Shown piece after piece: positions 2,923 to 6,310 of a DNA stretch of 34,255 nt. The notes below the pieces were generated by a model that ran no database searches, had not been told where the DNA came from, and saw only the letters and a program-made list of their open reading frames with translations. The position numbers were made by a program, and so were the translations under genes. The stretch is from a virus (Duplodnaviria > Heunggongvirae > Uroviricota > Caudoviricetes), in the IMG/VR virus record IMGVR_UViG_638341087_000014, positions 1-34,255 of that record. The stretch is one strand, 5' to 3'. The stretch's first letter is position 1, and every line of letters starts with the position of its first letter.

Positions 2923-2999
2923 CGTAAAAACTGCTTCAATGCCGGTACGCTTCGCAAAGCTGTACCGCGAGGCGAATAGCAGACATGGACATTTGAAAG

Positions 3000-3025
3000 A
3001 GCCCGCTTTTTGCGGGTTTTTTTTT
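3000..3025 (+). terminator. tR'-like intrinsic terminator downstream of the Q-like gene
   Basis: GCCCGC-TTTTT-GCGGG stem-loop followed by a 9-T run, about 80 bp after the Q-like stop. Confidence 0.6.
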
Positions 3026-3148
3026 ATGCCTGAAAAACGGTACAGGACGTTAAACGCGCTGATGGTTGCGAATACCGGTCTTTCAGCTTGCTGGCTTTTT
3101 CGACAAGAGCTATTGGTATGTCACGTTAACCAGAAAAGGAAAAAAGAC

Positions 3149-3346
3149 ATGCTAAAACAGCAGGATATGACCGAAACTGCCAGAGTGGTGTTTAATGAAT
3201 TAAGCGTCACCGAACCGGCGACCGTCGGGGAAATTGCGCAGAATACGTACCTTTCACGCGAACGCTGCCAGTTAATACTGACTCAGCTTGTTATGGCGGG
3301 TCTGGCAGATTATCAGTTCGGTTGTTACAGACGCCTTCCGCAGTGA
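3149..3346 (+). CDS. Small hypothetical protein (65 aa), possible helix-turn-helix
   Basis: ATG at 3149 preceded by AAAGGAAAAAAG; translation MLKQQDMTETARVVFNELSVTEPATVGEIAQNTYLSRERCQLILTQLVMAGLADYQFGCYRRLPQ; the stop lies inside a terminator hairpin. Confidence 0.4.
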   Translation: MLKQQDMTETARVVFNELSVTEPATVGEIAQNTYLSRERCQLILTQLVMAGLADYQFGCYRRLPQ

Positions 3347-3357
3347 AGGCTTTTTTA
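3333..3357 (+). terminator. Intrinsic terminator
   Basis: GCCTTC-CGCAGT-GAAGGC stem-loop followed by TTTTTTATTT. Confidence 0.5.
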
Positions 3358-3496
3358 TTTGTGGTAATGGGCGGCTGGTGGGTGTTAGCGGCACCTGCCA
3401 GCCATCTGCTCATGCGTTGGGGTCACAAGCAAACCTCAGGCCCATCTGCTTTGCGCAAAAGCGGTATGAGCCTATCAGAGAAGTGCTTATTGATCT

Positions 3497-4543
3497 ATGG
3501 CTAATACTGTAAAAATATCCAGTTGTGAGTTAATCAACGCTGATTGCCTGGAATTTATCCAGACTTTACCGGAAAACTCTGTCGATCTGATAGTCACAGA
3601 CCCGCCATACTTTAAAGTGAAGCCCGAGGGCTGGGATAACCAGTGGAAGGGCGACGATGATTACCTGAAATGGCTGGATCAGTGTCTGGCGCAATTCTGG
3701 CGGGTACTGAAACCTGCCGGAAGTCTCTACCTGTTCTGTGGTCATCGCCTGGCATCTGATACCGAAATCATGATGCGTGAGCGCTTTAATGTGCTGAACC
3801 ACATTATCTGGGCGAAGCCGTCCGGACGCTGGAACGGATGCAACAAGGAAAGCCTGCGGGCGTATTTCCCGGCAACAGAGCGCATTCTGTTTGCTGAACA
3901 TTATCAGGGGCCCTACCAGCCCAAAAATGACGGCTATGTGGCACAGGGGCGCAAGCTTAAACAGCACGTCATGGCCCCGCTGATTTCTTACTTTCGTGAT
4001 GCGCGTGAATCACTGGGAATAACGTCAAAACAGATAGCGGAAGCCACCGGAAAGAAAAATATGGCTTCGCACTGGTTTGGTGCCAGTCAGTGGCAGTTAC
4101 CGAACGAAGCTGATTACAGAAAACTGCAGGCATTGTTTGCGCGTGTTACAGCAGAAAAGCATCAGCGCGGGGAACTGGAAAAGCCACACCACCAGCTGGT
4201 CAGCGCATACAGTGAACTGAACCGTCAATACGCCAGCCTGCTGGAAGAGTACAAATCTTTGCGGCGTTATTTTTCCGTATCAGCTGCCGTTCCGTATACG
4301 GATGTCTGGACGCACAGGCCTGTGCAGTATTATCCGGGCAAACATCCCTGTGAAAAACCGGCGGATATGTTGCGGCAGATAATTGAGGCCAGCAGTCGCC
4401 CCGGTGATTTGGTTGCTGATTTTTTTATGGGGTCAGGTTCCACAATAAAGGCAGCATTGTCACTGGAGCGTCGGGCTATTGGTGTGGAACTGGATGAAGG
4501 GCGATTTAATCAGACTGTAACTGAAATAAAAAATATCTGTTAA
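3497..4543 (+). CDS. DNA methyltransferase, beta-class N6-adenine/N4-cytosine type (orphan, no restriction partner in window)
   Basis: 348 aa; N-terminal DPPY motif (LIVTDPPYF) and C-terminal FxGxG AdoMet motif (DFFMGSGST): motif IV before motif I. Confidence 0.85.
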   Translation: MANTVKISSCELINADCLEFIQTLPENSVDLIVTDPPYFKVKPEGWDNQWKGDDDYLKWLDQCLAQFWRVLKPAGSLYLFCGHRLASDTEIMMRERFNVLNHIIWAKPSGRWNGCNKESLRAYFPATERILFAEHYQGPYQPKNDGYVAQGRKLKQHVMAPLISYFRDARESLGITSKQIAEATGKKNMASHWFGASQWQLPNEADYRKLQALFARVTAEKHQRGELEKPHHQLVSAYSELNRQYASLLEEYKSLRRYFSVSAAVPYTDVWTHRPVQYYPGKHPCEKPADMLRQIIEASSRPGDLVADFFMGSGSTIKAALSLERRAIGVELDEGRFNQTVTEIKNIC

Positions 4544-4623
4544 TTGTGCATGGTGTTATTTCTGATAATTCCGGAATAATAAAAATATATATGTATATTT
4601 ACAATTGCTGACGAGCATTTTTA

Positions 4624-4651
4624 TTGAAAGCGTCCGGGTTATTCGTATTAT
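4624..4651 (+). promoter_or_regulatory. Candidate sigma70 promoter for the tRNA cluster
   Basis: TTGAAA (4624-4629), 16-bp spacer, TATTAT (4646-4651), about 30 bp upstream of the first tRNA. Confidence 0.3.
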
Positions 4652-4683
4652 TGTGCCGCGTCAGAGCAATGATGCAATGGACA

Positions 4684-4760
4684 GGCCCTTTAGCTCAGTT
4701 GGTCAGAGCGAGCGACTCATAATCGCCAGGTCGCTGGTTCAAGTCCAGCAAGGGCCACCA
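4684..4760 (+). tRNA. tRNA with CAU anticodon, ileX-like (tRNA-Ile2, lysidine type), often auto-annotated as tRNA-Met
   Basis: 77 nt cloverleaf folded by hand: acceptor GGCCCTT/AAGGGCC, T-arm GCTGG-TTCAAGT-CCAGC, anticodon loop CTCATAA, 3' CCA encoded. Confidence 0.8.
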
Positions 4761-4761
4761 G

Positions 4762-4838
4762 CCGCCACTAGCTCATCCGGATAGAGCATCAACCTTCTAA
4801 GTTGATGGTGCGAGGTTCGAGTCCTCGGTGGCGGGCCA
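4762..4838 (+). tRNA. tRNA-Arg (anticodon UCU)
   Basis: 77 nt: acceptor CCGCCAC/GTGGCGG, anticodon stem-loop TCAAC-CTTCTAA-GTTGA, T-arm CGAGG-TTCGAGT-CCTCG, CCA encoded. 5' end could shift by 1 nt. Confidence 0.8.
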
Positions 4839-4840
4839 GT

Positions 4841-4916
4841 GCCGACTTAGCTCAGCAGGCAGAGCAACTGACTTGTAATCAGTAGGTCACCAGTTCGATT
4901 CCGGTAGTCGGCACCA
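4841..4916 (+). tRNA. tRNA-Thr (anticodon UGU)
   Basis: 76 nt: acceptor GCCGACT/AGTCGGC, anticodon stem-loop ACTGA-CTTGTAA-TCAGT, T-loop TTCGATT, CCA encoded. Confidence 0.75.
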
Positions 4917-4919
4917 TAT

Positions 4920-4994
4920 GCGGGTATCGTATAATGGCTATTACCTCAGCCTTCCAAGCTGATGATGCGGGTTCGATTCCCGCTACCCGCTCCA
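4920..4994 (+). tRNA. tRNA-Gly (anticodon UCC), glyT-like
   Basis: 75 nt: acceptor GCGGGTA/TACCCGC, anticodon stem-loop TCAGC-CTTCCAA-GCTGA, T-arm GCGGG-TTCGATT-CCCGC, CCA encoded. Confidence 0.85.
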
Positions 4995-5246
4995 GAGCGA
5001 GATAGGTAGTTTTTTGGCACTGACACATTTTATGTAGGGCGTTTTTCCTGACTCCTTACCTCGCCCTGTACTGTAATGAGTGATATCGGTTGCAGTACCA
5101 GTGCTGTTTTTTACGCCACCGGAATGGTGCATTATTGGTAGAGATTTGCAATGTCTCTGGCAGGGGCCGGTGATGCATCATCCCGATGTTGTAAACATCG
5201 CTCAGATAACGTTGAAATCAATCAAACCCAGGAAATACATCTTTAA

Positions 5247-5270
5247 CCGCCGCACCAGGCGGTTTTTTTT
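5247..5270 (+). terminator. Intrinsic terminator downstream of the tRNA cluster
   Basis: CCGCC-GCACCA-GGCGG stem-loop followed by an 8-T run. Confidence 0.55.
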
Positions 5271-5646
5271 ATTCTTAATTCGAAGAAAAAGAAAACACGG
5301 ACATTGATAATGTCCGCGTGGCAATGCCATGTAAGTTAGCGATGAATATGGCGCAAAAAAAAGCGCGGCCGTCGGATTAACGCCGCGGGACAAAGTCCGT
5401 GAAGAATCATAAGCATCTGTCTCCTCCGGGAGACGAGTTGATATTACTAAGCTTTAAAAATGGTTTAAATCCTCAGATTAACCTTAATTTTCGGTAAGTC
5501 TTATTTCATTTCTTCGCGCCACGCCCGGCGCACATCAAAAAACCACAGAGCCTTTCAGGGGTGAGCTTACGGGATGGTCAGTGTGACTTTCTCTGTGGGC
5601 TGGTCACCCCCGGGCGCAGGCTCACCCACTAAAAGGAAAAGTCACG

Positions 5647-6072
5647 ATGTTTGGTATTTTCAAAAAGAAAACCCGCAAGGCCATTACCGAAGTGAAGAAG
5701 ATGGAGAACCGCGACGCAGTGGAGGCGACCGTCTGGGGCGCGTATTCCATTGCATATGCTGACGGCACCTGCGATGCGAAAGAAATCGCTGTGCTGGAGA
5801 AAACCATTGCAGCACTTCCTGCTTTTGCGCCGTTCTCGGGTGAGATTGCACAAATGAGTGCAAATATCCGCGCCCGTTATGAAGCGTCGCCGCGCTCTGC
5901 CAATGCTGAAGCCCTTCGCCAGCTGGCTGATGTTGCCGGTACTGATGATGCAGTTAATGTACTGTGCCTGTGTCTGGATATCGCAGACCAGGATGGCATT
6001 GGTCCGGATGAAGAAGCGCAGCTCAAGAAAATTGCTCAGGCGCTGCAGTTACCGCTGGAGCAGTACCTGTGA
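5647..6072 (+). CDS. TerB-like (tellurite-resistance TerB family) domain protein, 141 aa
   Basis: Pattern resembling TerB (two helical repeats with conserved AxxDG...EE/DEE, e.g. SIAYADGTCDAKEIAVLEK and LDIADQDGIGPDEEAQLKKIAQAL); AAAAGGAAAAG before ATG 5647. Family call from remembered pattern, not a search. Confidence 0.6.
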   Translation: MFGIFKKKTRKAITEVKKMENRDAVEATVWGAYSIAYADGTCDAKEIAVLEKTIAALPAFAPFSGEIAQMSANIRARYEASPRSANAEALRQLADVAGTDDAVNVLCLCLDIADQDGIGPDEEAQLKKIAQALQLPLEQYL

Positions 6073-6221
6073 AAAGTGCGCGCCTTGTGCTGGCTGCCAT
6101 CCTGCTGTTTCTGGTAGTGGCGGTGGATTTCACCGGACGGCTGATGTCGGTGCTGGCAGATGGTGTGCTGGTGGCGATGGCGCTGGTCGTGCTCCGGCCT
6201 TTACTGCGTAAATCTGAATAA
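6069..6221 (+). CDS. Candidate small membrane protein (50 aa, two hydrophobic segments), start overlapping the TerB-like stop (GTGA)
   Basis: Translation from GTG 6069: MKSARLVLAAILLFLVVAVDFTGRLMSVLADGVLVAMALVVLRPLLRKSE; below the 60-aa cut-off of the ORF track; ends just before a hairpin and terminator. Confidence 0.3.
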   Translation: MKSARLVLAAILLFLVVAVDFTGRLMSVLADGVLVAMALVVLRPLLRKSE

Positions 6222-6269
6222 CACCACACAAAAGGCATCTGCGGGTGCCTTTAACGGGGTGTTTTTTAC

Positions 6270-6296
6270 GGGCCGCTGGTGGCCCTTTTTTATTTA
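6270..6296 (+). terminator. Intrinsic terminator immediately upstream of the lysis genes
   Basis: GGGCC-GCTGGT-GGCCC stem-loop followed by TTTTTTTATTT; the holin ribosome-binding site follows directly. Confidence 0.6.
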
Positions 6297-6310
6297 CAGG
6301 AGAAAAAAGT

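Follow-up and report, generated by a model that had tools for sequence, protein, structure and literature searches.

A putative Q-controlled late leader with stacked intrinsic terminators in a phiP27-type prophage of Escherichia coli

The stretch of viral DNA analyzed here (34 kb; 34,255 nucleotides (nt) of IMG/VR record IMGVR_UViG_638341087_000014, called the window below) is a lambdoid prophage of Escherichia coli of the phiP27 type. Between the gene for a Q-like protein and the lysis genes, its plus strand carries five intrinsic terminators, which we call T1, T2, T3, T4a, and T4b. On sequence grounds, we think it likely that this interval is the late-control region of the prophage and that it works by Q-type antitermination across the chain of terminators. 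In the mechanism that we propose, a promoter (pR′) that overlaps the Q-like gene at its 3′ end would presumably be active all the time and, when Q is absent, would give rise to an RNA of ~78 nt ending at T1, the equivalent of tR′. After induction, Q-like protein made from the early operon would load onto RNA polymerase at pR′ and make it resistant to terminators, and the resistant polymerase would cross T1, T2, T3, T4a/T4b, and the hairpins of the structural operon to produce one long late transcript. T2 and T3 would close single cargo units, namely a small open reading frame (ORF) and an operon of tRNAs that has a promoter of its own, and T4a/T4b would form a fixed 5′ flank of the lysis cassette that shields the holin gene from Q-independent transcription starting or leaking upstream. 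The proposal rests on the sequence features described below, which exceed chance expectation and are conserved and modular, and on the assignment of the Q-like protein to its family.

Terminators of the leader

The first-pass annotation of this DNA had listed four plus-strand terminators in the leader. RNA folds calculated with ViennaRNA and a terminator scan of our own, which combines hairpin energy per length with a weighted U-tail in the form of d'Aubenton-Carafa, confirmed the position and strand of each of them (T1, T2, T3, and T4b), and all four rank among the best sites of the window in that scan. The list was incomplete, as it missed a fifth terminator, T4a (6220-6267), and two terminators on the minus strand (5387-5364 and 5319-5295).

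At a score of at least 10 (on this scale the ranks alone are meaningful), our scan returned six plus-strand hits in positions 2923-6310, compared with a mean of 0.29 ± 0.52 and a maximum of 2 in 120 dinucleotide shuffles; one of the six, at 4390-4418 inside the methylase gene, is weak. A consensus scan found 43 terminator-like sites versus 21.1 ± 5.0 in shuffles, a twofold excess, and picked up T2, T3, and T4b. T1 was not listed by the consensus scan because an upstream A-run pairs with the U-run and thereby consumes the tail.

Family of the Q-like protein

The Q-like gene (2368-2922, plus strand) encodes a protein of 184 amino acids and lies immediately upstream of the leader. First, the protein is a full-length member of PF06576 (DUF1133), with a score of 348 bits. 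Second, it scores above the curated cut-off of the Q21 family, PF06530 (29.2 bits versus 26), is matched to PHROG 753 ('anti-termination protein Q-like'), and gives a weak alignment over its whole length to the Q21 structures 6JNX and 6P18 (E ~1e-3). Third, its relatives go by various names ("DUF1133", "late gene regulator", "antiterminator"), and a survey of Shiga toxin (Stx) phages counts DUF1133 among the Q antiterminators (HHpred). Finally, at two loci, one from E. coli and one from Salmonella (L005 and L009), relatives 80% and 74% identical to the window Q are followed by IsrK 33 nt past the stop codon; these are true IsrK copies, scoring 67-81 bits, above the Rfam gathering threshold. 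Pfam, PHROG, the Q21 structures, and the IsrK-linked relatives thus agree with the earlier claim of a Q-type antiterminator gene at this place. A search of genome contigs with the window Q protein gave nine loci, and wider diversity came from annotated phages and IMG/VR.

In Gifsy-1 of Salmonella, AntQ is followed by IsrK, the terminator of IsrK is partly read through without Q, and overexpressed AntQ interferes with termination, with rescue by Rho (PMC4825925). Because the window Q has IsrK-linked relatives in the arrangement of Gifsy-1 AntQ, we assign it to the AntQ clade, as a distant member of the Q21 family. The DUF1133 family, itself uncharacterized, is now linked to the experimentally studied AntQ/IsrK locus.

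The main difference between Qs of the two leader types lies in a C-terminal segment (residues ~150-170), which reads TCE(K/R)RI..WL.VAE where the leader is of the window type (the window, L004, L007, and L008) and TCCSRVDVWLNLAE where it is of the IsrK type (L005 and L009). This pattern is compatible with the segment being a candidate determinant of leader recognition, with each Q specific to its own leader. In the IsrK-type relatives (L005 5088-5276; L009 1790-1976 and 5088-5268), a C4 antisense RNA, as in the P1 immI-like module, follows IsrK, and the Salmonella locus has two IsrK-C4 copies within 3.5 kb.

Late promoter, leader RNA, and T1

The candidate late promoter pR′ (2912-2940, plus strand) overlaps the 3′ end of the Q-like gene and consists of a −35 element, TTGCTT (2912-2917), a 17-nt spacer, and a −10 element, TTCAAT (2935-2940). 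Transcription would presumably start near 2947-2949, by analogy with IsrK. A late promoter had earlier been guessed to lie near 2920-2990, and the conserved promoter sits at the left edge of that estimate. We compared what follows the DUF1133 Q genes of E. coli, Shigella, Citrobacter, Salmonella, Klebsiella, Providencia, and Edwardsiella and those of 80 IMG/VR loci. In every case, a −35 element lies over the Q stop codon and is followed by a spacer of 16-18 nt, a −10 element, a short transcribed region, and an intrinsic terminator 75-110 nt past the stop codon. Group-A relatives have TTGATT-17-TTCAAT in the same register, with the Q stop codon within the −35 element, and Providencia and Edwardsiella phages have near-consensus versions (TTGACT-16-TATAGT and TTGACA-16-TAGTAT).

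The predicted short leader RNA (2947-3025, plus strand; ~78 nt) comprises a 5′ hairpin (2948-2974) followed by T1 and folds with −29.6 kcal/mol (z = −4.07). Its first ~33 nt, TAYGCTTCGCAAAGCTGTAYCGCGAGGCGAA, are nearly invariant across 31 unique variants and form the most conserved non-coding stretch, whereas the linker and terminator diverge. Variants with mismatches in the 5′ stem occur without compensatory changes, and the conservation of this block therefore looks sequence-based rather than structural, as expected of a Q-loading site. Two candidate −10-like pause elements, TACGCT (2946-2951) and AAAGCT (2956-2961), lie inside the block.

T1 (2995-3025, plus strand) would be the equivalent of tR′, ~50-78 nt past the inferred start. 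Its stem (2995-3023, with a G/C core at 3001-3017) is followed by nine U, and its energy is −16.9 kcal/mol (z = −5.0). At the same position, E. coli, Citrobacter, Klebsiella, Providencia, and Edwardsiella carry differing hairpins with CCCGC stems. Homology to phiP27 begins exactly at the U-tract of T1, where the hairpin of phiP27 is another one.

Identity of the leader RNA with IsrK (RF01394) was considered and rejected, as the match at 2949-3022 scores 19.8 bits against a cut-off of 50 and comes mostly from the terminator. In Rfam searches of the leader at permissive thresholds, Trp leader, isrK, RyhB, and other families appeared far under their cut-offs, driven by the terminator; at gathering thresholds, the four tRNAs were the sole matches. 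In one related locus (L169; IMGVR_UViG_2695420871_000002), owing to a natural deletion, the leader RNA runs as far as ...GAATAGCAGACA and then continues directly into the 3′ end of tRNA-Met. The deletion takes out T1, the small ORF, T2, and the methylase gene, and the first stop for pR′ transcripts in this locus would be T3.

Modular terminators past T1

The first gene past T1 is a small ORF of 65 codons (3149-3346, plus strand; PHROG 331, with a weak TrmB-like match), which corresponds to phiP27 L23. T2 (3333-3360, plus strand) overlaps its stop codon and consists of a stem (3333-3350) followed by UUUUUUAUUU (−8.9 kcal/mol, z = −2.4); the hairpin is kept in 27 unique variants in which the stem and loop sequences vary. 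A DNA methyltransferase gene (3497-4543, plus strand; PF01555, E = 1.4e-43) comes next, and then four tRNA genes (4684-4994, plus strand; Rfam at gathering thresholds) for tRNA-Met(CAT), tRNA-Arg(TCT), tRNA-Thr(TGT), and tRNA-Gly(TCC). Ahead of the tRNAs is a candidate promoter (4624-4651, plus strand) with the elements TTGAAA-16-TATTAT, which match consensus in 10 of 12 positions; the sequence upstream is AT-rich and the discriminator GC-rich, as in classic stable-RNA promoters. The candidate promoter is conserved in the three related loci that share that upstream region.

T3 (5245-5272, plus strand) closes the tRNA unit with a stem (5245-5264) and eight U (−12.4 kcal/mol, z = −4.6) and faces the minus-strand terminator at 5319-5295. 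Its 7-bp stem, AACCGCC/GGCGGTT, is invariant in nine of nine sequences (the window and eight variants), while loops and flanks differ widely. The tRNA unit thus has both a candidate promoter and a terminator of its own, and the tRNAs are probably made without Q, with T3 as their own terminator.

T4a (6220-6267, plus strand) is a two-tier hairpin with a stem at 6220-6263 and six U (−21.1 kcal/mol, z = −5.2). It stands in tandem with T4b (6270-6296, plus strand), which has a stem at 6270-6285 followed by UUUUUUAUUU (−10.8 kcal/mol, z = −1.7). Only 14 nt, with no promoter between, separate the U-tract of T4b from the start codon of the holin gene. At least one strong terminator lies in the last 110 nt before the holin in 81 of 85 holin-bearing related loci, and 68 of the 85 have two. 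The ~90-nt T4a/T4b block goes with the holin gene whatever precedes it: the block comes behind TciB, behind stx2e/L27 in phiP27 (a phage with another Q type), or, where cargo is lacking, straight after the locus of a convergent minus-strand RNA described below.

Between Q and holin, 20 of 21 distinct intervals (1.1-3.7 kb) contain three to seven plus-strand terminators. The shortest intervals already hold T1, the tRNAs with T3, the convergent RNA, and T4a-T4b, and to this minimal skeleton the window adds two blocks. One is the small ORF-T2-methylase block; the small ORF-methylase block is not present in minimal leaders. The other is the TerB-TciB block, a cargo cassette variably present among relatives and made up of a TerB/TciA-like gene (5647-6072, plus strand) and a DUF3927/TciB-like gene (6069-6221, plus strand). 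It is inserted between a hairpin, GCGCCACGCCCGGCGC, and T4a, where relatives lack it or have stx2e instead, so that, like a moron, it is present or absent between the same flanks. Consensus scanning and inspection for promoters found no sigma70-like promoter 5′ of the small ORF, the methylase gene, or the TerB-like gene. From these comparisons we conclude that the terminators past T1 are modular parts of exchangeable cassettes and that their number reflects cargo as much as fail-safe design.

The strongest alternative takes this modularity further and holds that each imported cargo unit brings or needs its own stop, so that the number of terminators says little about dependence on Q. T3 would end a constitutive tRNA operon, and T4a/T4b would block cargo-driven transcription into the holin gene in the lysogen. 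We give this explanation a somewhat less than even chance and regard it as largely complementary to Q antitermination. The conserved, near-consensus tRNA promoter fits it, as do the growth of terminator count with leader length and cargo content, the coincidence of homology breakpoints with terminators, and the constancy of the T4 block while the cargo upstream varies (TerB-TciB, stx2e, or none). Morons and convergent small RNAs (sRNAs) 3′ of pR′ have also been described in O157 prophages. However, the small ORF, methylase, and TerB-like genes, for which no promoter was found, are not classical self-contained morons, and the shortest leaders, although almost free of cargo, still have four plus-strand terminators.

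The hairpin GCGCCACGCCCGGCGC followed by CATCA (5517-5532 in the window) recurs at cassette junctions upstream of the holin gene in L022, L045, L066, and other loci, which suggests that it is a preferred recombination joint. E. coli prophages and Klebsiella phage 1 LV-2017 share a conserved leader of ~130 nt 5′ of the TerB/TciA-like gene (5514-5646). No promoter was recognized in this leader, and we do not claim it as a structured RNA: it has a stable fold (−42 kcal/mol; 12 variants), but covariation was seen in 1 of 41 pairs.

Dependence of the late region on Q

The earlier proposal was strict dependence on Q, with transcription otherwise ending short of the methyltransferase, tRNA, TerB-like, and lysis genes. 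For the lysis and structural genes this inference is plausibly right, because transcription entering from the leader has to cross at least T4a and T4b before it gets to them. A crude consensus scan of the late region showed no surplus of promoter-like sites (15 against an expected 16.9, and 11 against an expected 16.0), and these genes plausibly need a terminator-resistant polymerase. For the leader as a whole, strict dependence is not supported. The tRNAs probably have a near-consensus promoter of their own, a convergent candidate unit lies on the minus strand, and the cassettes are exchangeable. Moreover, the IsrK terminator of Gifsy-1 is partly read through without Q (PMC4825925), and such terminators are therefore leaky. 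Throughout, we infer the activity of the promoter, the start site, the efficiency of termination, and the action of Q from the features of the DNA.

Three plus-strand hairpins that the first-pass annotation had noted inside the structural operon, at 16001-16026, 22502-22522, and 24546-24572, proved real in both scans and folds and are among the ten best-scoring terminators of the whole window. The first (16000-16026; stem 16000-16018) follows the major capsid gene (14967-15995), the second (22500-22524; stem 22500-22517) lies between the tail-fibre assembly and tail sheath genes, and the third (24545-24572; stem 24545-24562) lies between the tail tube and tail assembly chaperone genes. It is plausible that they tune expression ratios, because they bracket the most abundant virion proteins. 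With strong terminators after the capsid and the sheath-tube genes, a single late operon of ~29 kb would fit solely with a terminator-resistant polymerase.

Several points weigh against Q antitermination of this leader. The similarity of the Q-like protein to Q21 is weak (E ~1e-3). The hexamers of pR′ match consensus in 4 of 6 and 4 of 6 positions, no known Q-binding-element sequence was recognized in the leader, and the pause element was not pinpointed. T2 (z = −2.4) and T4b (z = −1.7) are modest on energy alone, and compensatory changes in the plus-strand terminators are few. The related loci are mostly close E. coli prophages, and their conservation partly reflects shared ancestry. Finally, a stop codon in the DUF968 gene may mean that the prophage is decaying and that Q is never expressed.

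This last point leads to a second alternative, in which the prophage is defective, Q is unexpressed or non-functional, and the terminators are inherited leftovers. The in-frame stop in the DUF968 gene, which belongs to the early operon, and the leader deletion variants in related loci such as L169 favor such a relic, but the ORFs for Q, lysis, and structural proteins are intact and of normal length and many other loci share 97-99% identity with the leader, and we consider this explanation improbable. Slightly less probable still is the possibility that the hairpins are not terminators and instead are stem-loops that stabilize or process mRNA, or recombination joints between modules. Hairpins do lie at module boundaries, and those of the structural operon flank the decoration, capsid, sheath, and tube genes, where 3′ stabilizers would be useful. 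Nevertheless, each hairpin is of canonical size, is co-oriented with the genes, and is directly followed by six to nine U, equivalents on the minus strand are absent save for the terminators of the sRNA candidate itself, and stems are kept while loops vary. Chance matches, to which the short stems and modest z-scores of T2 and T4b might point, are refuted by the shuffle test and opposed by intergenic placement and conservation in relatives, and hardly merit consideration. Antitermination by Q across the chain of terminators is the reading that we favor.

Relation to known systems

Antitermination by Q has been established in lambda, phage 21, and Stx phages and is the ordinary means by which lambda-like phages delay lysis until they are induced. 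Also well established are its action across stacked terminators, the carriage of cargo in the interval from tR′ to the lysis genes, and the short RNAs made from pR′. As in the Q/pR′/qut/tR′ (6S RNA) system of lambda, the Q gene of the window is directly followed by what would be a constitutive promoter with a short, terminated transcript, and the lysis and structural genes beyond lie in the same orientation; the processive antitermination of lambda extends over an operon of ~25 kb, for which the counterpart here is putative. By contrast, lambda Q belongs to another family and the lambda S gene is close behind tR′, whereas the window has 3.3 kb of cargo, four more terminators, and a convergent sRNA candidate before the lysis genes. 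With Q21 of phage 21 (6P18, 6JNX; PF06530), the window Q shares the family cut-off and the end-to-end alignment, but the similarity is very weak, there is an insertion of ~25 residues, and the best family is DUF1133. The two 8-bp direct-repeat subsites to which Q21 binds are not recognizable in the window.

Closer likenesses are found among prophages of enteric bacteria. The Gifsy-1 AntQ-IsrK locus (PMC4825925) has a Q of the same clade and the same layout as the window, in which a promoter (a candidate one in the window) comes first, then a short RNA carrying a 5′ hairpin, and then an intrinsic terminator. They differ in that the short RNA of the window is not IsrK, no C4/anti-repressor module follows it, and the C-terminal segment of Q varies with leader type. 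The Stx phages 933W and Sp5 (PMC7547250, PMC4104026) have the order pR′-StxS-tR′, tRNAs, stx, convergent sRNAs, and lysis genes, and thus share with the window the placing of cargo between tR′ and the lysis genes and of convergent small RNAs 5′ of the lysis cassette; moreover, many Stx2 phages have a small ORF-methylase-tRNA block with 81-87% identity to the one in the window. Unlike these phages, the window carries TerB/TciA-TciB in place of a toxin, has a convergent RNA candidate other than AsxR/AgvB, and has another Q type. The Stx2e phage phiP27 (NC_003356) is 90.5% identical to window positions 3020-6400 over the shared blocks, which run from the T1 U-tract to the holin gene and include the same small ORF-T2-methylase block, T4 block, and holin. 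In phiP27, however, Q is a 126-residue protein of another type, a nuclease gene follows Q, stx2e replaces TerB-TciB, and the hairpin at the T1 position differs.

The Q/leader variant of the window and the fixed double terminator before this holin family are uncharacterized so far. We tentatively offer a joint interpretation, of which we are doubtful as a whole: that DUF1133/AntQ proteins are a distinct Q subfamily that would load largely at the first ~33 transcribed nt, that the ~78-nt RNA may be a regulatory sRNA of the lysogen, like IsrK and StxS, and that the T4 block together with the recurrent GC hairpin might act as a portable 'lysis gate' at the right edge of a hot spot for cargo insertion. 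With its holin gene behind a conserved double terminator, a phiP27-like prophage could hold cargo in the late leader without risk of premature lysis. In relatives, the cargo at this site includes Shiga toxin 2e or LT-II, and in such toxin-carrying relatives the layout decides whether expression of the cargo is confined to induction or extends to the lysogen. The textbook account of Q antitermination stands as before.

A convergent RNA candidate on the minus strand

Opposite the leader genes lies a small-RNA candidate (5286-5469, minus strand) with a promoter formed by TTTAAA (5469-5464), a 17-nt spacer, and TAATAT (5446-5441). The predicted RNA, from ~5434 to 5356, has ~79 nt and three hairpins and would end at a terminator (5387-5364) with eight U; a back-up terminator (5319-5295) lies 45 nt further on. 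The promoter is conserved, and compensatory changes occur in 4 of 16 pairs. Among 5426 complete E. coli genomes, 110 contain the candidate, and none of these annotates it as an RNA. Convergent small RNAs at the cargo site 3′ of pR′ have already been reported for O157 prophages.

No Rfam family matched this RNA at gathering or permissive thresholds. AsxR and AgvB were rejected, as their sequences are unrelated and the conserved 3′ region ...GTATCTCATGC..TTGCCCGAACCCACTCGGGCTTTT was not found, and comparison with EcOnc32/33 (Sakai prophages Sp3 and Sp6) also gave no match. A minus-strand ORF of 26 codons (5416-5336) was rejected as a gene, as its ATG is ATA in most relatives.

Other features of the prophage

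Positions 2300-6400 of the window are 96.8% identical to the DNA of an E. coli pig isolate. On the plus strand, the order of genes is hok, the DUF968 gene, rusA, the DUF1133 gene, the 65-residue ORF, the methyltransferase gene, the four tRNAs, TerB/TciA, DUF3927/TciB, and the lysis genes. Profile matches identify the last of these (6311-7348, plus strand) as genes for a holin (PF16931), a second holin (PF05449), and an M15 endolysin. Beyond them come the genes for terminase, portal, protease, decoration, and capsid proteins and then a contractile-tail module; every gene from 6311 to 32178, for lysis and morphogenesis, is on the plus strand.

The DUF968 gene (821-1987), 5′ of Q in the early operon, has an in-frame TGA at 1688-1690, and the surrounding stretch shows several 1-2-nt indels relative to an intact homologue of 324 residues in L002. 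This gene may be a pseudogene.

Terminator-like hairpins with U-tracts also occur inside plus-strand coding sequence, at 6725-6754 (second holin) and 7412-7437 (a spanin-like ORF), and belong to the top ten of the window; they may be by-products of coding for hydrophobic segments or extra gates. Further plus-strand hairpins of this kind, absent from the first-pass annotation, are found at 14919-14943 (between the decoration and capsid genes) and 18687-18705 (inside the tail module), and one at 32217-32240, also on the plus strand, marks the end of the late operon, just before genes on the minus strand.

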